The notes under the pieces were generated by a model, which ran no database searches, was not told where the DNA came from, and worked only from the letters and a program-made list of their open reading frames with translations. Of a DNA stretch of 63,852 nucleotides, positions 27,224-57,588 are shown one piece after another. The stretch's first letter is position 1, and every line of letters starts with the position of its first letter. The translations under genes and the position numbers were made by a program. Where the stretch lies: the NCBI GenBank assembly GCA_049678585.1, contig JBAUEL010000064.1, forward strand, positions 1 through 63,852. Direction: 5' to 3'. This stretch comes from Dehalococcoidia bacterium (GTDB lineage: Bacteria > Chloroflexota > Dehalococcoidia > DSTF01 > CAZFGZ01).

Positions 27224-28015
27224 GTGCCTGAAAGCAAACGCCGACGGAAGCGTCGAGGAAGCCGTGCCCTGGGCGATGCCTATGCGGGCCGGGTCAGGCC
27301 CACAGGGCCGTTCGCTATCTTCGCCAACGTGCGCATGTTCTACGTGGTGGGCGTTCTCATCATGATGGGAGGCCTAGCCGCGGGTGGGGTGACCGCGGCT
27401 CTGGGGCTGCGGAGCCGCGGGGACGGCCAGAATGACGAGGCCCTCCTCCTTACACCCCAGCCCACCGCTGAGGCCACTGCCGCCCCGGAGAGCACCGCTA
27501 CCGTCAAGCACTACGATGCGCCCCCTCCCATGACCATCGACCCCGAAAAGTCCCATACCGCCGTCATCAAGACGGAGAAGGGGGACATCCGCATCGAACT
27601 CTTCGCTCGGGACGCCCCCCAGACCGTGAACAACTTCGTCTTCCTGGCCCGCGATGGCTTCTACGACGGGCTGACCTTCCACCGGGTGGATCCCGGCTTC
27701 GTGGCCCAGGCCGGCGACCCTACCGGCATCGGTACGGGCGGGCCCGGCTACACCATCCCCGACAAGCTGAATGAGCACGCATTCACGGCAGGCACGCTGG
27801 GGATGGCTCTTGATGGAGACCAACCCAATTCGGCAGGCAGTCAGTTCTTCATCACACTGAGCGACCAGCCCACCTTCAACGGGAGCTACACCGCCTTCGG
27901 CCGGGTGACCGAGGGCATGGACGTGCTGCAATCACTGACCCCGCGGGACCCGAGCATGGGCAGGGATGTACCGCCCGGGGATCGGATCATCAGCATCGAC
28001 ATCGAGGAGCTCTGA
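27224..28015 (+). CDS. cyclophilin-type peptidyl-prolyl cis-trans isomerase with N-terminal membrane anchor (GTG start)
   Basis: FHRVDPGFVAQAGDPTGIGTGGPGY and SQFFITL motifs. Basic N-terminus followed by a TM helix FYVVGVLIMMGGLAAGGVTAAL. Confidence 0.9.
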   Translation: MPESKRRRKRRGSRALGDAYAGRVRPTGPFAIFANVRMFYVVGVLIMMGGLAAGGVTAALGLRSRGDGQNDEALLLTPQPTAEATAAPESTATVKHYDAPPPMTIDPEKSHTAVIKTEKGDIRIELFARDAPQTVNNFVFLARDGFYDGLTFHRVDPGFVAQAGDPTGIGTGGPGYTIPDKLNEHAFTAGTLGMALDGDQPNSAGSQFFITLSDQPTFNGSYTAFGRVTEGMDVLQSLTPRDPSMGRDVPPGDRIISIDIEEL

Positions 28016-28035
28016 GGAGGGATAGTGCAATACCG

Positions 28036-28064
28036 AGAGGGCCAGCCTCTGCGGCTGGCCCTCT
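28036..28064. terminator. perfect 12-bp stem hairpin between convergent genes
   Basis: agagggccagcc-tctgc-ggctggccctct, between the PPIase stop (28015) and the minus-strand ORF stop (28159). The U-tract is weak. Confidence 0.45.
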
Positions 28065-28158
28065 TGGCGTTGCTGAGAGGACAGTCGGTCAAGAACTCCT
28101 GCCGCCGGAGGCGGCATGCGCCATGGCCGAGCCGGGGACAGGCTTTTCCCGCATCCTG

Positions 28159-28491
28159 CTAGCCGACCTCAATACCGCGCTTGGCGTGGCGGGCCAGGAA
28201 GTCGTTGATGCTCCTGACGATTCCCTGCGCGCGAGATATCTCGTACTCGGTGGCGCACTGGTTACACATGTGGAACTCAGCGTAGGTGACGAAGCCAGCA
28301 GCGAACCGGGGTCGGCGGCAGACGCTACAGGGGCGGGTACTTTGAGGGGGTACCCCTCGCTCCAGGTCCTCCTCTACGAAGAGGTGCATAGCCGTCTTGA
28401 TGGCATCTACCTGGCGCTGGGTGAGGCTGTTTGGCGGCTGTGGAACAGCGACATATCGTGCTGACCCGCGGTACCGGCTGCCCTTAATCAT
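28159..28491 (-). CDS. hypothetical 110-aa protein with two CxxC pairs (zinc-ribbon-like), riboswitch-preceded
   Basis: ATG preceded by GGAGGTGA at 7 nt. CSVC ... CNQC motifs. It is the only ORF downstream of the minus-strand ydaO-type leader. The overlapping plus-strand ORF 28123..28464 lacks any start context. Confidence 0.6.
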   Translation of the reverse strand: MIKGSRYRGSARYVAVPQPPNSLTQRQVDAIKTAMHLFVEEDLERGVPPQSTRPCSVCRRPRFAAGFVTYAEFHMCNQCATEYEISRAQGIVRSINDFLARHAKRGIEVG

Positions 28492-28611
28492 CTCGGTTCA
28501 CCTCCGCTACCATATTCGACCGAACTTGCGTCCGTCCTGAGAAGGCAGCAGCGCGTGCCCCGCCGCACAGCGAAGACCAGAGGCGGTAGCCCCTGGTCCA
28601 CAGTGCTACTC

Positions 28612-28750
28612 CTCCTTCTTATGCCTACGGGGTTAGCTGTCGGGTTCGGCTCAAAGGAGTTCGCCTACCCCCCGATGTCACCGGGAGGATTCACCCCAGA
28701 GAGATTGGGTCCCCCGTTCCCCAAATGGAGATTCGGCTGCCTATTCAGTT
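28612..28750 (-). promoter_or_regulatory. candidate c-di-AMP riboswitch (ydaO-yuaA type), copy 2
   Basis: The minus strand reads ...gaataggcagccgaatctccatttggggaacgggggacccaatctctctggggtgaatcctcccggtgacatcggggggtaggcgaactcctttgagccgaacccgacagctaaccccgtaggcataag. The blocks cgggggaccca, ggggtgaatc and ccgaacccgacagctaaccccgtaggc match my recollection of the ydaO motif and match copy 1. Confidence 0.75.
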
Positions 28751-28756
28751 TTCCCT

Positions 28757-28786
28757 AGCCTAGCCAATCGCGCGAGGCCCTGTCAA
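28757..28786 (-). promoter_or_regulatory. promoter candidate (TTGACA-18-TAGGCT) for the riboswitch transcript
   Basis: Minus strand: ttgaca (28786-28781), 18-nt spacer, taggct (28762-28757). Confidence 0.45.
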
Positions 28787-28883
28787 CCGGGGAGAGGGCC
28801 AACCACCGCCCTTGGACACCCTTACGTCCTTTGGACCACGCGCTCAGGCTCATCTTCTCGCCCGTCGCCAGCAGGGAAGCAAG

Positions 28884-29105
28884 CTAGGGCGACGGCGCCT
28901 TGTTGCCACGCTCCTGCTCGCTCCGCTCCAGCAGGCGCATCAGGAGGAAGAAGGGTACGAAGCCCGCGAAGGCGATGCCGCCGGGCAGCCACAGGCCACC
29001 CATGACCAGAAAGATCCCCAGGGCTAGGGCCAGGGCCATCCCGACGATGGCGACGATGCGCACGATGGCCACGTAGCCAGCGACCCTGCTGTCCCGGGCG
29101 CTCAT
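28884..29105 (-). CDS. small two-helix membrane protein (73 aa)
   Basis: MSARDSRVAGYVAIVRIVAIVGMALALALGIFLVMGG...IAFAGFVPFFLLMRLL. This is the internal ATG of the listed ORF 28884..29897. The rest of that ORF is an antisense shadow of the PLP-enzyme gene. Confidence 0.5.
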   Translation of the reverse strand: MSARDSRVAGYVAIVRIVAIVGMALALALGIFLVMGGLWLPGGIAFAGFVPFFLLMRLLERSEQERGNKAPSP

Positions 29106-29125: not shown

Positions 29126-29173
29126 GGCTGGTCGGGGTGGGCAGATTCGAACTGCCGACCTCTCGGTGCCAAA
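29126..29173 (-). repeat. duplicated 3' half of tRNA-Pro (att-like fragment)
   Basis: 44 of 48 nt are identical to 32621-32668, covering the anticodon loop through CCA plus 3 nt. Two of the four differences (29143, 29153) are compensatory in the T-stem. No 5' half is present. Confidence 0.8.
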
Positions 29174-29502
29174 ATAGGCAGCGACCCTCCCAGGGCGGAC
29201 CGCCCTCACCCCTGCTCGCGTCGACGATATGGTCGTTCCCTCCGGCTGTCAAGTGTCTCCATGCCCGGATCGGGCGTAGGGCGGAGCCATGCGGCCTGCT
29301 GAGTCCCCCAATCAGGAGGCAATGAGTTCGAGGTAATCGAGGGAGCGGCCCAGGGAGGGCCGATGGCCTGGACTGCAGTGGTGCCGTCCAGCCTGCGGGC
29401 CAAAGGAGGTGAGACCGATGAAGATACGTCTGACGAAAAGGACTCCCGTTGCGATGGCGACGGTGGCGTTGGTGTTCCTGGCCACCCAGTCCGCTGTAGC
29501 CC

Positions 29503-30705
29503 TCAGCCCACGGAACCGAGCGCCTGATCGAGGTCGGCGATGAGATCCTGCGGGTCTTCGAGCCCGATGCTGATGCGCATGATCCCGTCGCCCGCCCACT
29601 CGCGGTACGCCCTCTTCTGGTCGGCATCCAAGTAGGTCGCGCTGTCCACGTAGAGCTCCGTGGGGTAGTAGAATAGCAGGCTCTGATAGTCCCCCAGCGA
29701 CGTGGCGTAGGTGAACACGCGCACCTGCTGGACGAGGCTCGCAGCGGTCTCCATGTCCATTTGGGCGACGACCATGCCGCCGAAGCCCAACATCTGCCGC
29801 CGCGCGAGGTCGTGCTGCGGGTGGCTCTCCAGGCCAGGGTAGAGCACGCGCCTGACCCTCGGGTGCTCCTCCAGGAAGCGCGCCACCGCCAGCGCACTCT
29901 CCTGATGCTTCTGTATCCGCAGCGAGAGGGTGGCGAGGCCCCGATTGATGAGCCAGGCGTTGAACGGGCTCATGGCGCCACCGAGATGGATAAGCATTCC
30001 CTGGCGGATCTTGTGGATGCCCTCTCCGGCTCCCACCACGATCCCACCCAGAGCGTCGCCATGCCCGCCCAGGTACTTGGTCGCGCTGTGGAGGACGAAG
30101 TCCGCCCCGAGGGACAGCGGCCTCTGCAAGACCGGCGTGGCAAAGGTGCTGTCGACCACCAGCGGTACGCCCGCCTGATGGGCGATGTCGGCGAGGGCAG
30201 CGACGTCGGTCAGGCGAAGGATGGGGTTGGCAGGGGTCTCGATGTACACGAGCCTGGTGTTAGATCGCAGGGCCCTGCGCACAGCCTCGGCGTCGCTGGT
30301 GTCCACCAGGCTCACCTCGATGCCGTAGCGGCCGGCGTGTAACGCGATGAGCTCCACAGTGCCCGCGTAGCACACGTCGCTCGCCACCACGTGGTCTCCG
30401 GCGCCCAAGAACGTGAACAGCACGCTGGAGACGGCCGCCATGCCCGAGGCGAACGCGAGGCCCGCTTCCGCGCCCTCGAGCGCGGCCATCTTCTCCTCGA
30501 GCGTGCGCAGCGAGGGGTTGCTCCAGCGGGTGTAGACGTGCGGCGGCTGGTCTCCCCTGAGGAAGAGCGCATCCATCAGGCGGGGGCCCGGCTCGGGCAG
30601 CTTGAACGTCGTCGTCATGTAGATGGGTGGAGTTACCGAGCCCGTGGCTGGGTCGGGCTCCTGACCAGCGTGGACAGCCTGCGTATCGAATCGGTACTCG
30701 CTCAT
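29503..30705 (-). CDS. Cys/Met-metabolism PLP-dependent enzyme (cystathionine gamma-synthase / methionine gamma-lyase family)
   Basis: FDTQAVHAG N-terminus and PLP-lysine block HSATKYLGGHGD. Length 400 aa. Confidence 0.85.
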   Translation of the reverse strand: MSEYRFDTQAVHAGQEPDPATGSVTPPIYMTTTFKLPEPGPRLMDALFLRGDQPPHVYTRWSNPSLRTLEEKMAALEGAEAGLAFASGMAAVSSVLFTFLGAGDHVVASDVCYAGTVELIALHAGRYGIEVSLVDTSDAEAVRRALRSNTRLVYIETPANPILRLTDVAALADIAHQAGVPLVVDSTFATPVLQRPLSLGADFVLHSATKYLGGHGDALGGIVVGAGEGIHKIRQGMLIHLGGAMSPFNAWLINRGLATLSLRIQKHQESALAVARFLEEHPRVRRVLYPGLESHPQHDLARRQMLGFGGMVVAQMDMETAASLVQQVRVFTYATSLGDYQSLLFYYPTELYVDSATYLDADQKRAYREWAGDGIMRISIGLEDPQDLIADLDQALGSVG

Positions 30706-30758
30706 GCTACTCTCCTCACAGAGCCAACAGAGTGGCTAAACGATGCCCCTCGATCTCC

Positions 30759-32222
30759 CTAGTCCTCCCACTCGGCGCCCTCGAAGTCGGCCATGGTGCG
30801 CTCCCGAACCATAGCCACGTACTCAAGCAACTCCTTCTCCACTGCCGGGTCTAACTCCCGCCGCTCATGCCTCGCCAGGAGCTCCCGCACCCGCTCCCGC
30901 GCTAACTCGAACGCCGTCCTCGACCCCTTACGCTCCCACGCCTCCCTACCCTCCCTCCGCAGCAACCTCGGCAGGAAATGCTCCCGTCGGTAGTGCTCAG
31001 CAGTGTGCAACTCGGCCAGATAATGGCCCTGCCAGCCCACCTCCTTGATCAGCTCCAGAGCGATGGTCTCCTCGCTTACGTCGATCCCACGCGCCAGCCT
31101 TAGGGCGAGCCCGCACAGTTCGTCGTCCAGCACCAGCAAAGGGTGACTCTCGCTAGTGGTGGATTCCAGGGTGCCGCCGCAGGTGATGAAGTGCACGCCA
31201 GCGAGGACTGCGGGCAGCAGCGTGCTGACCCGTTCCAGCATGCACTGTAGGTCCAGCGTCTTGGCGTCGGTGGTGCCGCCTACGCCGCGGCAGGGCAGAC
31301 CGTAGTGACGGGCCAGTTGCGCCGCCCCGGCGGTGATCAGGCCGGTCTCTACCGCGCCGAGAGCGACATTGCCCGTCGCCATATCGGCGATGGTGGACAC
31401 GGTGCCATAGAGCACCGGCGTGCCCGGCGCGATGATCTGGGCCAGGGTGATATGGGCCAGGATCTCGGCGTTCTGCTGGGCGAGCAGCCCCGCCAGAGTC
31501 ACGGGAGCGGTAGCGCCGGACATCGCCTCCGGCGACATGGCGATGGGCTGGCCGTACTCGGCGAAGAAGAACATGCCCTCGATCTGGAGCTTGATCATCT
31601 GGAGGGGACTCATCACCGAGCAGATCCCGAAGAAGCGAGGACGCCTCTTCAACTCCTCCTTCCCACCCACCGCGATCGCCATCATCCTCATCATGTCCTC
31701 GCTGGCCATCGCCCCATAGCACCCCATGCCGAAGGACTTGCGACAGTTCTGGGCCCAGGCGAGGATAGCCTCCACGTGGATGGTGGTCATGGGAATGTCG
31801 GTGGGCCAGATGTCCATCTGGCTGTTGTTGATGTGATCAAGGCCATCGATCAGGCGGAGGTGGTTGCGGACATCCTCCAGCGTGGTGGGCCGAAGTTGCC
31901 CCATCTCCGTATCCACGATGTTCGTCGGGGTGCCCAGCGCGGCGAAATTCACCTGGTCGCTGCCGATCTCCAGGCGGAAGTCCGGGTCCGCCCCGTAGAG
32001 CGTGAACCGCTTGGGTGCCTGGTCGATGGCCCGGCGCACCAGCTCCTCCGGGATGCGCACCGAACGGGCCGCCTCGTCCACCTGCGCCCCGGCCTCCCGA
32101 AAGGCATCCCTCGCCCTCTTGAGGTCCACCCGGAGCCCTACGCTCCCCAGGATATTCATGGAGGCGGCGTCGATCTGCTGCACCTCCGCCGGACTGAGCA
32201 CTTCGAAGTATGCCGGTTTCAT
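30759..32222 (-). CDS. mttB: MttB-superfamily (trimethylamine methyltransferase-like, non-Pyl) methyltransferase
   Basis: 487 aa. The N-terminus LSPAEVQQIDAASMNILGSVGLRV and overall length are typical of the MttB family. No in-frame TAG interrupts the ORF. Confidence 0.7.
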   Translation of the reverse strand: MKPAYFEVLSPAEVQQIDAASMNILGSVGLRVDLKRARDAFREAGAQVDEAARSVRIPEELVRRAIDQAPKRFTLYGADPDFRLEIGSDQVNFAALGTPTNIVDTEMGQLRPTTLEDVRNHLRLIDGLDHINNSQMDIWPTDIPMTTIHVEAILAWAQNCRKSFGMGCYGAMASEDMMRMMAIAVGGKEELKRRPRFFGICSVMSPLQMIKLQIEGMFFFAEYGQPIAMSPEAMSGATAPVTLAGLLAQQNAEILAHITLAQIIAPGTPVLYGTVSTIADMATGNVALGAVETGLITAGAAQLARHYGLPCRGVGGTTDAKTLDLQCMLERVSTLLPAVLAGVHFITCGGTLESTTSESHPLLVLDDELCGLALRLARGIDVSEETIALELIKEVGWQGHYLAELHTAEHYRREHFLPRLLRREGREAWERKGSRTAFELARERVRELLARHERRELDPAVEKELLEYVAMVRERTMADFEGAEWED

Positions 32223-32386
32223 CTCGCCCCCTCACGCGTATCGCAGATGCCAACGGCCTGGGCGATGGAAAATAGCCCATCCACCACCGAAGGCCTACGG
32301 TAGTGTGTGACGCTGGTCAGGTCAAATTGGCGAAGGCGGGCAGAGCAGACGGGGCGCTAGGTTTACCCCCATGACCTCCGGCGCAC

Positions 32387-32406
32387 GTTTATCAGCGACC
32401 TACTGG
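32387..32406. repeat. partial MITE-like terminus, copy 3
   Basis: gtttatcagcgacctactgg resembles the right ends of copies 1 and 2 (ggtttatcagcagcctactag). Confidence 0.35.
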
Positions 32407-32623
32407 ACTGAGGCGTGGACATTTCGACAGTGCAGCGGTTGGCAGGGCGCCGGTCGATTGGGACCACGGCGAGGTACGATAGGCGTGGGGAAGAGCCCAA
32501 GAAGCAGGCGGCACTGCTGCATATCCCGTTTCAGAGGGGTTGATGGAGCGCGGTAGACGGGCCCCAGGTACGACGCGCATGGTTCGTGGGAGACCGTGCG
32601 CTCGGGGAAACCTCTAGCGAGGC

Positions 32624-32701
32624 TGGTCGGGGTGGGCGGATTCGAACCGCCGACCTCTTGGTCCCAAACCAAGCGCTCTATCCTAACTGAGCTACACCCC
32701 G
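32624..32701 (-). tRNA. tRNA-Pro(UGG): tRNA-Pro (anticodon UGG), CCA encoded
   Basis: Reverse complement: cggggtg-ta-gctc-agttaggata-gagc-g-cttgg-ttTGGga-ccaag-aggtc-ggcgg-ttcgaat-ccgcc-caccccg-a-cca. Confidence 0.9.
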
Positions 32702-53432: not shown

Positions 53433-53598
53433 GGAGACGGCTCCTGGTTGTTGAACCCGGCGAAGGCCGCCCCAGGGGCAGCCTTAATTTATACACCATG
53501 GGGGCGTTAGGCTGAAGGGCCTTCATACATTGCGCCGCGCGTACCCGGTGGACGATAATATTGGCACGTGGAGCGAGACTCGGGGCTGGAACGGCTCT

Positions 53599-54891
53599 AT
53601 GAGCGACAAACGGACCCCGCAGGGACGTCCCATCGATTCGACCATGCACCACTCGGAGAAGGCGGACCAGGACACCCCCCCGAAGCCCTCGCTGGCCGCG
53701 GTGGACTTCGACCGGACTCCCTTTACCTTAGCCTGGGAGGTCACCCGGGCCTGCGCCCTCAAGTGCGTCCACTGTCGCGCCGAGGCCCAGCCCAAGCGCG
53801 ACCCCCGCGAGCTCAACACGGAGGAAGGCTTCCGCCTCATTGACCGCGTTGTGGAGATCGGTGGGCCCATCCTGATCATCACCGGCGGCGATCCCATGAT
53901 GCGCCCCGACCTCTTCGAGCTCATCCACTACGCCAGCGACGCCGGCCTGCGCGTGGCCTTCTCTCCCAGCGCCACCTCCCTGGTGACCCGCCAGCGCCTT
54001 CGCAAGGCCCGCGACGCCGGGGTCAGCCGCACCCATATCAGCCTGGACGGAGCCACCGCCGAAAGTCACGACAGCTTCCGCCAGAGCCCCGGCTCTTTCC
54101 GGCGCACCATGGAGATAATGAACGACCTGCGGGACCTGGGGATGTCCCTGCAGATCGGCACCACGGTCAGCCGCTACAACCTCCATGAGCTGGACCAGAT
54201 CGCCGACATCGCCGCCCAATACGGCGCGGTCATGTTCAACGTGTTCTTCCTGGTGCCCACCGGCCGTGGCAGCCACGACGATGTGATCTCACCCGAGGAG
54301 CACGAGCAGGTCTTCCACTGGATGTATGACCTCTCCAAGACCGCCCCCTTCGACGTGCGCAGCACCGCCGCCCAGCACTACCGCCGGGTGGTCATCCAGC
54401 GCCGCCAGCAGGAGCAGGCCGAGGCCGCCCGCGGGCAGGGGGCCGCGTCCAGCGGCCCTGCCGACAGCATCTATCTCACCGGCGCCGGCTTCAGCTTCGC
54501 CGATGGCCTGGGCCAGTCAGCCATGAAAGGGGTCAACGACGGCAACGGCTTCGCCTTCGTCAGCCACATCGGCGATGTGTACCCCTCTGGGTTCCTCCAG
54601 CTACCGGCAGGCAACGTCCGCAGGCAGTCCTTCGTGGACATTTACCGCCACTCGCCCCTCTTCCGAGACCTGCGCGACTATTCCAAGCTCAAGGGCAAGT
54701 GCGGGCTGTGCGACTTCCGGGACGTCTGCGGGGGCTCCCGAGCCCGTGCCTTTGGCGTCACCGGCGACTACCTGGAATCGGAGCCCTACTGCGTCTACGT
54801 CTCCCCCGCCGCACGCGAGGCGGGCGTGGGCGCGCCCGCGCCGCCCAAACCCGCCGGCAGCCCTCACATCCCGTCGACTGTGCGGGACTAG
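53599..54891 (+). CDS. radical SAM/SPASM protein, NirJ/AhbC/AhbD-like
   Basis: CALKCVHC (CX3CX2C) and a C-terminal SPASM region ...KGKCGLCDFRDVCGGSRA. Adjacent to siroheme-decarboxylase-like genes. The ATG at 53599 is preferred. Confidence 0.75.
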   Translation: MSDKRTPQGRPIDSTMHHSEKADQDTPPKPSLAAVDFDRTPFTLAWEVTRACALKCVHCRAEAQPKRDPRELNTEEGFRLIDRVVEIGGPILIITGGDPMMRPDLFELIHYASDAGLRVAFSPSATSLVTRQRLRKARDAGVSRTHISLDGATAESHDSFRQSPGSFRRTMEIMNDLRDLGMSLQIGTTVSRYNLHELDQIADIAAQYGAVMFNVFFLVPTGRGSHDDVISPEEHEQVFHWMYDLSKTAPFDVRSTAAQHYRRVVIQRRQQEQAEAARGQGAASSGPADSIYLTGAGFSFADGLGQSAMKGVNDGNGFAFVSHIGDVYPSGFLQLPAGNVRRQSFVDIYRHSPLFRDLRDYSKLKGKCGLCDFRDVCGGSRARAFGVTGDYLESEPYCVYVSPAAREAGVGAPAPPKPAGSPHIPSTVRD

Positions 54892-54901
54892 TCGACAGGC
54901 C

Positions 54902-55375
54902 ATGGCCATCAAGCTGGACCGCGGCGACCGCATCCTCCTGAATCACGCCCAGGGCGACTTCCCCGTGTGCCCGCGCCCCTTCCGGAAGCTGGGAGAGCGC
55001 ATGGGCATGAGCGAAGAGGAGGTGCTGTCACGCCTGCGACGGCTGGTGGATGCGGGCGCCATCAGCCGCTTCGGGCCCATCCTGGACGCTCCCCGGCTGG
55101 GCGGCGAACGAACCCTAGTCGCCATGCACGTACCTCCAGAGCGCTTCGACGAGGTGGCCGACTTCATCAACAAGCTGCCGTCTATCTCCCACAACTACGA
55201 GCGCGAGCATCACCTCAACCTGTGGTTCGTCATCTCCTCGGAGGACGAGACGGAGATCGCCCGCACCCTCCGGACCATCGAGGAGAAGACCAGCCTGGAG
55301 GTCCTGAACCTGCCCTCGGAGGAGGAGTACTTCCTAGAGGTCAGGTTCCAGTTCCCGGTGGACGATGCTGACTGA
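54902..55375 (+). CDS. ahbA: siroheme decarboxylase subunit-like (AsnC/Lrp-type, NirD/L or AhbA-like)
   Basis: LDRGDRILLNHAQGDFPVCPRPFRKLGERMGMSEEEVLSRLRRLVDAGAISRFGP...ISHNYEREHHLNLWF. Confidence 0.7.
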   Translation: MAIKLDRGDRILLNHAQGDFPVCPRPFRKLGERMGMSEEEVLSRLRRLVDAGAISRFGPILDAPRLGGERTLVAMHVPPERFDEVADFINKLPSISHNYEREHHLNLWFVISSEDETEIARTLRTIEEKTSLEVLNLPSEEEYFLEVRFQFPVDDAD

Positions 55376-55844
55376 CCAAGAGCGCCAACTCCTTCTAGCC
55401 ATCCAGGACGGCCTTCCCCTGGTGCCTCGGCCCTACGCTGAGGTGGCCGAGCGCATCGGGACCAACGAGGAGCGGGTGCTGGAGCTGGTCGTTTCCCTCC
55501 TCCAGCGGGGCGCGATCAAGCGTATCGGCGCCGTCCCCAATCCCCACGCCCTGGGCATCACCGCCAACGGCATGGCCGTGTGGGACGTGCCCGACGAGCG
55601 GGCCAGCGAGGTGGGGAGACGCCTCGGCCGCATGCCCGAGGTCACCCACTGCTATCGGCGGCCCCGTCGCCCGCCCGCCTGGCCATACAACCTCTTCGCC
55701 ATGATCCATGGGCGCAGCCGCCAGGAGGTGCAGGAGATCGTCGCGCGCATCAGCGAGGAGCTAAACATCGCCGGCCATCCGCACGAGGTCCTGTTCAGCA
55801 CGCGCCTGCTAAAGAAGCGGGGCACGCGGCTCACCTCGCCCTAG
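55365..55844 (+). CDS. ahbB: siroheme decarboxylase subunit-like (NirG/H or AhbB-like)
   Basis: ERQLLLAIQDGLPLVPRPYAEVAERIGTNEERVLELVVSLLQRGAIKRIGAV...VTHCYRRP...YNLFAMIH. Overlaps the previous gene by 11 nt. Confidence 0.7.
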   Translation: MLTDQERQLLLAIQDGLPLVPRPYAEVAERIGTNEERVLELVVSLLQRGAIKRIGAVPNPHALGITANGMAVWDVPDERASEVGRRLGRMPEVTHCYRRPRRPPAWPYNLFAMIHGRSRQEVQEIVARISEELNIAGHPHEVLFSTRLLKKRGTRLTSP

Positions 55845-56023: not shown

Positions 56024-56180
56024 CTGCCAATCGAATAGAGAGCGGTTTTATTGGCCGAATTCCCTGAGAAAGGGAAGCGGGGGACCCATATTCTGGGGTG
56101 AATCTCCCGGCTCGTCCGGCGAGTAGGGCAAGTTCTCCCAGCCCGAACCCGTCAGCTAACCCCGTAGGCACATAGGGAGG
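56024..56180 (+). promoter_or_regulatory. candidate c-di-AMP riboswitch (ydaO-yuaA type), copy 1
   Basis: ...ccaatcgaatagagagcgg...gccgaattccctgagaaagggaagcgggggacccatattctggggtgaatctcccggctcgtccggcgagtagggcaag...cagcccgaacccgtcagctaaccccgtaggcacatagg. It has the same conserved blocks as copy 2, with different stem sequences. Confidence 0.75.
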
Positions 56181-56198
56181 CCTGTCCCGCGCGCATTG

Positions 56199-56232
56199 CG
56201 AGCCCGGGCGTCGGCCTTGGGCTCGTTTTCTT
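56199..56232 (+). terminator. intrinsic terminator (riboswitch expression platform)
   Basis: cgagccc-gggcgtcggcctt-gggctcg followed by ttttctt. It lies about 65 nt upstream of glgC. Confidence 0.7.
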
Positions 56233-56292: not shown

Positions 56293-57588
56293 GTGACTGC
56301 GATGGAAAAAGTTATCGCCATGATCCTCGCAGGAGGCGAGGGTGACCGGCTGAGTGTCCTCTCGGAGGAGCGCGCCAAGCCTGCGGTGACCTTCGGTGGG
56401 CGCTACCGCGTCATTGACTTCACCCTGAGCAACTGCGTCAACTCGGGCATCACCCGGGTGGGGGTGCTGACCCAGTATCGGCCCCGCTCCCTGAACGAGC
56501 ACATCGGTATCGGTCGCCCCTGGGACCTGGACCGGGGCGGCGCCGTCTCCCTCCTCCAGCCCTACCTGGGCCGGGAGAGCTCGGACTGGTATTCTGGCAC
56601 CGCCGACGCCGTCCACCAGAACCTCTACTTCGTTGAGGAGTCACAGGCCGAACAGGTGATCATCCTGGCAGGCGACCACGTCTACAAGATGGCCTATGAC
56701 GAACTCATCGCCTTCCATCGCTCCCAGGGGGCCGACGTGACCATCGCCGTCTATCAGGTGCCCCCAGATGAGGCCAGCCGCTATGGCGTCATCACCTATG
56801 ATGACACCGATGCGATCATCGCCTTCGACGAGAAGCCCACAGAGCCGCGCTCTAACCGGGCCTCCATGGGTGTCTACGTCTTCAACAAAGACGTGCTCAT
56901 AGAGCGACTGGTGGCAGACGCGCAGGAACCCACCACCCACGACTTCGGCCACGATATCATCCCCGCCATGGTGGGAGACCCCTGCTACAGACTGTGCGGC
57001 TATCGGTTTAAGGGGTACTGGCGGGACGTGGGCACCATCGAGTCCTACTTCAACGCCAACATGGACCTGCTGGAGGACACGCCAGAGCTGGACCTGTACG
57101 ACCCTGAAACCCTCGTTCGTACCCAGATGACCGCCCTGCCCCCGGCCCGCATCGGCCGCCGCGCCTACCTCAGCCGCTCCCTGGTCGACCTTGGCTGCGT
57201 CATCGAAGGGCATGTGGAGCACTCGGTTCTCTCCCCCGGCGTGCACGTGGAGGAGGGAGCGGTCGTGCGAGACGCCATCATCTTCGAGGGCTGCCACATC
57301 GAATCGGGCGCTATCATCGACCATTCCATCTTGGACAAGGAGGTCCAAGTCGGCAAGAACTGCTATGTCGGCTACGGAGATGACTTCTCCCCCAACAGGG
57401 ACCGTCCAGACATCGTCCACTGCGGCATCACCATCGTGGGCAAGCGGGCCCAGTTGTCCGCATCCACCCGCGTAGGGCACAACTGCGTCATCGGCCCAAG
57501 CGTGGTGGTGGAAGGCATCGAGGACAACTACATCCCCAGCGGAGAAACCCTCCGCGTGCCACCCGAGAAGGTCCCCTATTCGGTGTAG
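56293..57588 (+). CDS. glgC: glucose-1-phosphate adenylyltransferase
   Basis: [12 protein letters not shown] (G-rich loop), [20 protein letters not shown] and a C-terminal left-handed beta-helix region. The ATG at 56302, with GGGAGG 8 nt upstream, is the likelier start. Confidence 0.92.

Follow-up and report, generated by a model that had tools for sequence, protein, structure and literature searches.

A c-di-AMP riboswitch upstream of the gene for a conserved four-cysteine protein in an uncultured Dehalococcoidia bacterium

Introduction

What would a cyclic di-adenosine monophosphate (c-di-AMP) riboswitch control when the only gene downstream of it encodes a small protein of no named family? 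This question is raised by a locus in contig JBAUEL010000064.1 of a Dehalococcoidia bacterium (assembly GCA_049678585.1), where a candidate riboswitch of the ydaO/yuaA class lies on the minus strand ahead of a gene for a four-cysteine protein of 110 amino acids (aa). The stretch analysed, positions 1 to 63,852 of the forward strand, is referred to here as the window. In Firmicutes the outputs described for this riboswitch class are transporters of K+, osmolytes and amino acids, and in Actinobacteria they are enzymes of the cell wall (PMC7266159, PMC9960051, PMC3766115). The c-di-AMP response is normally associated with the homeostasis of osmotic conditions and the cell envelope. For proteins of unknown function in uncultured bacteria, the association of a gene with a riboswitch is one of the few routes to a physiological context.

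We report that the RNA is a standard member of its class, probably with a familiar mechanism, and that the new part is the output gene. No link of this riboswitch class to Dehalococcoidia, or to a protein of this kind, was found in the literature; the associations were taken from reviews and later papers, and a 'hypothetical' entry in earlier gene tables is possible. The pairing of RNA and gene would tie the c-di-AMP response to a protein family without a name, which comprises at least 200 clusters and is drawn mostly from Chloroflexota. Although no new principle is involved, the locus is of value as a conserved gene, apparently under c-di-AMP control, in an uncultured phylum, and it carries a hint of a link to transcription factors. 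Together with a second set of riboswitch targets in alpha-glucan synthesis (glgC) and the sigma factor and regulator genes found beside other members of the family, it begins to outline how c-di-AMP signals in Dehalococcoidia, for which no genetic system exists.

Results

The aptamer and its promoter

A scan of the whole window with Rfam 15 returned two matches to RF00379, the ydaO/yuaA riboswitch family (Table 1). The match on the minus strand, 28748..28607, scored 95.8 bits (E 2.2e-21), which is 2.5 times the gathering score of 38, and covered model positions 1-134 of 134. An earlier reading of this DNA, made from the letters alone (the sequence-only reading), had called a ydaO-type c-di-AMP riboswitch here from four sequence blocks, had proposed an RF00379 search of the minus-strand leader, and had seen the same blocks at 56.0-56.2 kb. 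All four blocks fall within the minus-strand match, whose score lies well above the family threshold, and the second match, 56043..56184 on the plus strand (94.8 bits), coincides with the other place. Conserved blocks of the aptamer include ACGGGGGA and CCGAACCCG.

Conservation of the P2 helix and of the pseudoknot helix was followed in 13 aptamers, comprising the two window copies and 11 relatives, using RNAalifold. The P2 helix consists of four pairs, three of which show compensatory changes. The pseudoknot helix joins CUCCUUU of the P7 loop to GAAGGAG of the 3' tail and has seven pairs that are kept throughout the set, two of them through compensatory changes from UA to CG, and double changes of this kind also distinguish the two copies in the window. 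The copies are approximately 78% identical, and only across the conserved aptamer core. Their variable helices differ in a manner that preserves base pairing, as the sequence-only reading had remarked, and this pattern identifies them as members of an RNA family and excludes a DNA repeat. By its score, its coverage of the full model, the covariation of its helices and its position in a 5' leader, the RNA at 28748..28607 belongs to RF00379, and by analogy with the class it would bind c-di-AMP.

The 3' end of the aptamer carries a longer tail, AAGAAGGAGG (28620..28611), which resembles a Shine-Dalgarno sequence; the RF00379 consensus has GaGaGg at the position of GAAGGAG. We considered AAGGAGG as a ribosome-binding site and rejected it, the covariation assigning it to the pseudoknot strand of the aptamer.

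The TTGACA-18-TAGGCT promoter candidate of the sequence-only reading is present upstream, and the RF00379 match begins 9 nt downstream of its -10 hexamer. In six relatives the -35 hexamer is invariant and the -10 hexamer keeps the form TAGnnT, with the variants TAGGCT, TAGAGT and TAGCCT. More divergent leaders (loci L016, L020, L021 and L026) carry TTGACA at a similar distance 5' of the aptamer, and L033 carries TTGACT. A generic sigma-70 promoter scan of 27900..29000 made no call, at this site or elsewhere; it misses the site because TAGGCT agrees with TATAAT at only 3 of 6 positions. We propose that the promoter is of the sigma-70 type and that the aptamer begins at about the transcription start.

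A covarying hairpin between aptamer and gene

The sequence-only reading had found no clear terminator after the aptamer and had left the control mechanism open. We found that a hairpin with a stem of 10 bp, GACCAGGGGC-UACC-GCCUCUGGUC (28598..28575), begins 9 nt past the end of the RF00379 match. In an alignment of 12 leaders (the window, 10 related leaders and the glgC copy of the window) this hairpin folds in every leader, 96.7% of the cells form standard pairs, and 5 of the 10 pairs change on both sides. None of 500 shuffles matched either the observed pairing percentage or the covariation score, and sliding the partner strand as a control lowered pairing to 32-64%. The stem is thus clearly present, contrary to the earlier view, which holds in part for the U-tract, since the tail UUCGCUGUG is weak. 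With a conserved and covarying terminator hairpin after the aptamer, the control mechanism can no longer be called open. Well-formed U-tracts occupy the same place in the divergent leaders L033 (UUUUUUGAU), L047 (UUUUGUUUUG) and L026 (GUUUUGUUGU). L005, which is of the same clade as the window, has the tail UUCUUUGUG, and the glgC-copy terminator, which aligns in register with the first, ends in a canonical GUUUUCUU.

We therefore considered how the parts would work together. It is likely that promoter, c-di-AMP riboswitch, intrinsic terminator and 110-aa gene form one unit that acts as a transcriptional OFF switch. In the proposed unit a sigma-70-type promoter would be followed by the aptamer, the terminator hairpin, a spacer (approximately 60-80 nt), a strong ribosome-binding site and the 110-aa gene. 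Abundant c-di-AMP would bind the aptamer and lock the pseudoknot of the P7 loop with the 3' tail; the downstream hairpin would then form, and transcription would end 5' of the gene. At low c-di-AMP, RNA polymerase would read through and the protein would be made. This OFF logic is proposed because the anatomy matches that of characterised members of the class. With c-di-AMP, the terminated share of B. thuringiensis kdp transcripts rises in vitro, from 27% to 63% (PMC6488665), and the B. subtilis ydaO/kimA riboswitch is an OFF switch that works via premature termination (PMC9960051). The direction of the switch, and efficient termination in the window's own clade despite its weak U-tract, are thus argued by analogy.

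Several points weigh against this reading. The U-tract UUCGCUGUG of the window is poor, and the tract is weak across the clade of the window. A terminator scan of 27900..29000 called nothing, because a tail with only 4 U in 9 nt falls below the scan criterion. The riboswitches of S. coelicolor rpfA and C. glutamicum nlpC were reported without canonical terminators, and that of nlpC acts on translation (PMC9960051). Finally, no antiterminator pairing in a conserved register was identified when either terminator arm was compared with the P7 loop, with the tail and with P3 and P1 on their 3' strands. Complements of 4-6 bp between G-rich and C/U-rich stretches occur in every leader, and a GUAGC/GCUAC match in most, but their register varies by lineage (for example in L026), and at this base composition matches by chance are likely.

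The weak U-tract in the clade and these high-GC precedents, with translational control in C. glutamicum (PMC9960051), speak for an alternative in which the aptamer is true but the hairpin has another role, be it in pausing, in RNA processing or stability or in Rho-dependent attenuation, or in which a leader helix controls translation. A candidate for such a helix pairs 28551..28544 with 28511..28504 and abuts the ribosome-binding site of the 110-aa gene. It appears in both the minimum free energy (MFE) and the centroid fold, encloses a small hairpin with a GCAA loop and reaches the ribosome-binding site at its first two G. The helix is kept in the close clade via one-sided changes, as judged by eye, and is absent from L005, and we regard it as an element of low confidence; the MFE z-score of the whole leader is -0.5, which is uninformative at this GC content. 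On the other hand, the hairpin covaries and lies in register with the clear terminators of L033, L047, L026 and the glgC copy, and the tails of L005 and L006, from the same clade as the window, are more U-rich. In addition, the ribosome-binding site lies approximately 100 nt from the aptamer, and no complementarity to the aptamer is conserved into L005. We judge this alternative to be rather unlikely and retain the intrinsic terminator.

A 37-aa open reading frame (ORF) with a GTG start overlaps the hairpin and the start of the gene. It could be read as a translated leader peptide, with its AAGGAGG sequestered by the pseudoknot on binding of c-di-AMP and the 110-aa gene translationally coupled to it via ATGA; in the window a GGAGG lies 9 nt 5' of the GTG, and the stop of the ORF overlaps the ATG of the gene. 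The relatives make this very improbable. The reading frame is shifted in L008 and interrupted by an in-frame stop in L009, the GTG is lacking in L005, elsewhere the stop is displaced, and most of the relatives have no ATGA overlap. Variable sites are spread over the codon positions as 11/11/12, which carries no coding signature, the conserved 5' part of the ORF is the terminator hairpin, and the 110-aa gene has an invariant GGAGGTG site of its own. We therefore rejected the leader peptide and judged the ORF to be non-coding.

Pairing of riboswitch and gene in related loci

The sequence-only reading had asked whether homologs of the 110-aa gene are also preceded by this RNA. We found the pairing at about 18 loci; it occurs in all close relatives whose upstream DNA is long enough, and in seven divergent members. 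In L001, L002, L003, L005 and L006 the gene is preceded on its own strand by an RF00379 match, as it is in L004, where the contig cuts the match. It also precedes the family gene in L009 to L013 and, by alignment, in L007. The divergent members are L016, L020, L021, L026, L033, L034 and L047, which share 37-49% identity at the protein level. The aptamer lies 100-260 nt upstream of the matched protein region; in the window, the gene lies 116 nt past the match. Among the seven divergent linked loci a terminator is present in all seven and a promoter in five, L034 and L047 being cut just upstream of the aptamer. In the window, as noted earlier, the 110-aa gene is the sole downstream gene, with nothing else on its strand before the convergent cyclophilin gene at 27224..28015 (+). 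Since the pairing persists to 37% identity with wholly different spacers, the arrangement appears to be maintained by selection, and these comparisons support the 110-aa gene as the output of the riboswitch.

This has to be set against the loci in which the RNA is missing: among 80 family loci from metagenomes, RF00379 had no match at approximately 26 of high GC and 28 of low GC for which 450 nt or more of upstream DNA were available. Furthermore, the convergent cyclophilin gene adjoins the family gene in 13 riboswitch-linked loci, and with this common synteny the pairing may go back to a single origin and have been passed on by descent, without repeated gain. Neighbour-joining places the genes linked to a riboswitch on several branches within the high-GC half of the family, at the poor resolution that a protein of 85 residues allows. 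Most simply, a single orthologous locus would have been passed down over a span of Chloroflexota, and the unlinked genes elsewhere would be paralogs. That riboswitch and gene are neighbours by inherited synteny alone, the gene having its own promoter and the riboswitch giving a short terminated RNA, is very improbable: the single conserved block with the cyclophilin gene would suit one ancestral arrangement, but the generic scan found no promoter-like site between terminator and gene, the spacer shows no promoter conservation in relatives, the arrangement is retained at 37% protein identity and with spacers that differ entirely, and there is no other gene downstream on that strand.

One of the linked loci departs from the rest. 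In L047 (22..164) the RF00379 match reached only 43.1 bits, and unrelated sequence takes the place of the 5' half of the aptamer with its blocks ACGGGGGACCCA and GGGGUGAAUC. The locus has kept the 3' half of the aptamer and a canonical terminator, as well as the family gene with its cyclophilin neighbour. The aptamer of L047 may be a decayed one or a variant.

The four-cysteine protein family

The ORF described by the sequence-only reading is present with its ribosome-binding site (GGAGGTGA) and its two cysteine motifs, CSVC at residues 55-58 and CNQC at residues 76-79. It starts with ATG, replaced by GTG in L008. That reading had also allowed for an ORF without conservation. We found six close homologs with 60-92% identity, variable sites in the core (codons 21-100) distributed over codon positions 1, 2 and 3 as 13/20/38, and invariant cysteines, the tails being freer; on this evidence the ORF encodes a conserved protein. 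With a profile built from the close homologs, a library of 1.84 billion representatives yielded 201 cluster representatives at E <= 1e-3; at E <= 1e-10 the number was 155. The description of the protein as an orphan therefore stands insofar as it belongs to no named family, and falls insofar as it has a family of 201 representatives. In an alignment of 36 members C55, C58, C76, C79, G66, Y70, E84 and A30 are invariant. The family is found mainly in Chloroflexota and is annotated as 'hypothetical protein' in every source; its only named member is labelled Dehalococcoidia or Chloroflexota. Among species-representative genomes the gene occurred in one, an uncultured Dehalococcoidia metagenome-assembled genome (MAG).

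We searched for relatives of known identity. Pfam and NCBIfam gave nothing significant for the window protein, nor did Pfam for the 36 members, and neither a transporter domain nor a cell-wall domain (NlpC/P60, Rpf or LysM) of the classical ydaO outputs was among the Pfam and NCBIfam matches, in agreement with the earlier statement that the output lies outside the classical ydaO regulons. A sequence-profile search of the PDB was likewise without a significant match; GATA-3 (E 0.18) and GATA-1 (E 0.79) stood among the top matches, with alignments over approximately 56 residues. Foldseek with the predicted model returned nothing significant from the PDB (best E 0.9) or from BFVD (best E 0.19), so that the lack of a recognised family noted earlier extends to all four collections. 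At E <= 0.1, 21 Pfam families were matched by at least one of the 36 members. The weak FtrD-like, zinc-ribbon, B-box and GATA matches were rejected as identities, as they mirror the cysteine motif only; the FtrD-like matches (9 of 36 members, best E 7e-4) leave an iron or iron-sulfur site possible.

AlphaFold2, supplied with the 36-sequence alignment, gave a model with a mean predicted local distance difference test (pLDDT) score of 84.6 and values above 94 for residues 21-100. In this model the N-terminal ~20 residues are disordered and are followed by a long helix (25-44), four short strands (52-75) that bear both cysteine pairs, and helices at 77-88 and 95-108. An acidic surface motif, FVE[ED]D, is conserved on helix 1, and the helix past the finger is not basic. 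Because the four invariant cysteines sit on two knuckles in a confident model, they most likely hold zinc. Inspection of the sequence showed no long hydrophobic segment, in keeping with the absence of a transmembrane segment stated earlier, and the product is predicted to be a small cytoplasmic protein.

Neighbours of family members that lack the riboswitch

The low-GC half of the family (GC 0.41-0.53) has no riboswitch, and its genes occur in tight, same-strand clusters with sigma-70 or NarL-type regulator genes (Table 1). Seven loci have a sigma-70 gene (~320 aa), a conserved ORF of 89-99 aa that belongs to no known family, and then the family gene, which is followed in 4 of the 7 by a HesB/IscA-like gene. 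In three others a sigma-70 gene of 476-483 aa begins 36-40 nt after the family gene, and in two a NarL-type response regulator precedes it. An OmpR-type regulator lies near the family gene in five loci; the order of regulator followed by family gene was checked in L019 and L022.

Because members without a riboswitch cluster in this way, we offer the tentative guess that the family protein partners with the transcription machinery, either a sigma factor or a response regulator. What counts against it is that its evidence comes from gene neighbourhood in paralogous branches, sequence and fold searches lending it no support. A broader proposal, which we regard as doubtful, is that c-di-AMP acts in Chloroflexota not only directly on transport or cell-wall genes but also via a riboswitch-controlled regulator, the four-cysteine protein, which would bind RNA polymerase, a sigma factor or a response regulator and, when derepressed at low c-di-AMP, would reprogramme a secondary gene set. 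If this were true, the c-di-AMP regulon of Chloroflexota, with the riboswitch at glgC and alpha-glucan operons as well, would be quite unlike those of Firmicutes and Actinobacteria.

The second riboswitch and glgC

The second aptamer of the window is followed on its 3' side by glgC, encoding glucose-1-phosphate adenylyltransferase (56293..57588, plus strand; NF003670, 481 bits). We sampled six glgC loci, and in 4 of the 6 the 1200-nt flank stops inside an upstream glycosyltransferase gene. In L090 (942..2487), whose GlgC is 88% identical, an RF00379 match of 93.1 bits lies 118 nt 5' of glgC. In L095 (1242..7211), from a Dehalococcoidia MAG, GlgC is 69% identical, and an RF00379 match of 84.2 bits heads an operon of a TreT-like GT1 gene, a second GT1 gene, glgC and a GH57 gene. 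The nearest GlgC relatives are labelled Dehalococcoidia or Chloroflexota. By these sequence comparisons, this lineage has at least two conserved riboswitch targets, namely ADP-glucose and alpha-glucan synthesis and the zinc-finger-like gene. We found no link in the literature examined between the c-di-AMP riboswitch and glgC, glycogen or trehalose synthesis. A route from c-di-AMP to glycogen is known in cyanobacteria, where it runs via the protein SbtB (PMC8654305).

Directly 5' of the glgC riboswitch (53530..55844, plus strand) the window carries a radical-SAM gene (53530..54891), together with two AsnC-type/NirD-L-like genes. From the translations in the window, the arrangement resembles that of alternative haem or haem d1 biosynthesis (AhbA/B-like). 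L090 has the same radical-SAM and AsnC-type neighbours by their Pfam labels.

Comparison with known systems

The layout of promoter, aptamer, terminator, spacer (approximately 100 nt) and gene is shared with B. subtilis ydaO/kimA and B. thuringiensis kdpFABC, which contain the same aptamer family, and the OFF direction would be expected here as well; in B. thuringiensis the terminator lies 143 bp upstream of kdpF (PMC6488665). The present locus differs from both in that its output is a small soluble four-cysteine protein and not a K+ transporter, its host belongs to the Chloroflexota and not to the Firmicutes, and its clade has a weak U-tract. With the actinobacterial rpfA and nlpC riboswitches it shares a high-GC host, the aptamer class and a GGAG/CUCC element at the 3' end of the aptamer (PMC9960051). 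Those riboswitches, however, control cell-wall hydrolases and were reported without a canonical terminator (PMC9960051), whereas here a covarying stem is present and the product is not a cell-wall enzyme.

The protein resembles GATA-type and other treble-clef C4 fingers in the cysteine spacing C-x2-C-x17-C-x2-C, in L-C-N-x-C, and in having a helix past the second cysteine pair. The spacing agrees with GATA (PF00320), but no significant profile or fold match accompanied it: Pfam GATA matched 1 of the 36 members at E 0.013, and the Foldseek match to 4hc7 had E 3.1 and a template modelling (TM) score of 0.28. Unlike GATA fingers, the family has an acidic conserved motif and a helix past the finger that is not basic, and direct DNA binding in the manner of GATA is for this reason unlikely; the likeness is one of resemblance only. 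The DksA/TraR fingers also have the spacing C-x2-C-x17-C-x2-C. With these and with the ZAS anti-sigma factors (RsrA) the protein has in common its small size, a predicted cytoplasmic location, a cysteine cluster flanked by helices and, in some members, a place beside sigma-70 genes. No member of the 36 matched the Pfam families zf-HC2 or zf-dskA_traR at E <= 0.1, and in the 36-member alignment the ZAS motif H-x3-C-x2-C is absent, no conserved histidine being found before the cysteines. Membership in these families is unsupported, and that the family is functionally analogous to ZAS or DksA/TraR factors is speculation.

Table 1. Positions of the features in the window (1 to 63,852) and of the low-GC clusters at other loci
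Feature	Position	Strand	Remark
-35 hexamer TTGACA	28781..28786	-	invariant in six relatives
-10 hexamer TAGGCT	28757..28762	-	18-nt spacer from -35; relatives keep TAGnnT
c-di-AMP riboswitch aptamer (RF00379, ydaO/yuaA class)	28607..28748	-	covariance-model match and helix covariation in 13 sequences
P7 loop CUCCUUU, 5' strand of pseudoknot	28653..28659	-	pairs with 28618..28612
3' tail GAAGGAG, 3' strand of pseudoknot	28612..28618	-	Shine-Dalgarno-like; pairs with P7 loop 28659..28653
Expression-platform hairpin GACCAGGGGC-UACC-GCCUCUGGUC, putative intrinsic terminator stem	28575..28598	-	10 bp; conserved, covarying
Tail past hairpin UUCGCUGUG	28566..28574	-	weak U-tract, 4 U in 9 nt
37-aa GTG ORF	28488..28601	-	overlaps start of 110-aa gene (ATGA); judged non-coding
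Predicted leader helix CUGCUGCC (28551..28544) with GGUAGCGG (28511..28504)	28504..28551	-	MFE and centroid folds
Ribosome-binding site GGAGGUGA of 110-aa gene	28498..28505	-	GGAGGTG invariant in seven relatives
110-aa gene, small four-cysteine (C-x2-C-x17-C-x2-C) protein	28159..28491	-	conserved unnamed family
GC-rich hairpin GAGGGCCAGCC-GCAGA-GGCUGGCCCUC	28037..28063		read from sequence; between convergent 110-aa and cyclophilin genes
Cyclophilin gene	27224..28015	+	peptidyl-prolyl isomerase type; convergent on 110-aa gene
Second c-di-AMP riboswitch aptamer, 5' of glgC	56043..56184	+	RF00379, 94.8 bits, model 1-134 of 134
Putative terminator of second riboswitch, GAGCCCGGGC-GUCG-GCCUUGGGCUC then GUUUUCUU	56200..56232	+	aligns in register with first terminator
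Low-GC cluster loci	L054 157..2449; L042; L069; L058; L062; L066; L089; L077 247..1984; L079; L087; L041 679..2738; L050		same-strand clusters

Other features around the locus

At its N-terminus the cyclophilin has a hydrophobic segment, possibly a membrane anchor, and its convergence with the family gene is kept down to 37% identity of the family protein. The GC-rich hairpin between the two convergent genes is conserved in L010 and L011 and is probably their shared transcript end.

Upstream of the riboswitch, an apparent insertion of approximately 3.5 kb (29126..32701, minus strand) adjoins the 3' end of a tRNA gene (32701..32627), with an imperfect copy of about 40 nt of the 3' part of the tRNA at 29166..29126. 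The inserted DNA carries genes for an MttB-family methyltransferase (30759..32222) and a Cys/Met-metabolism enzyme dependent on pyridoxal phosphate (29503..30705); no integrase was seen in it. In L011, L009 and L003 the tRNA is joined directly to sequence corresponding to window position ~29173. L010, which is 98% identical across the riboswitch-gene region, has the tRNA fragment and different DNA upstream of it.

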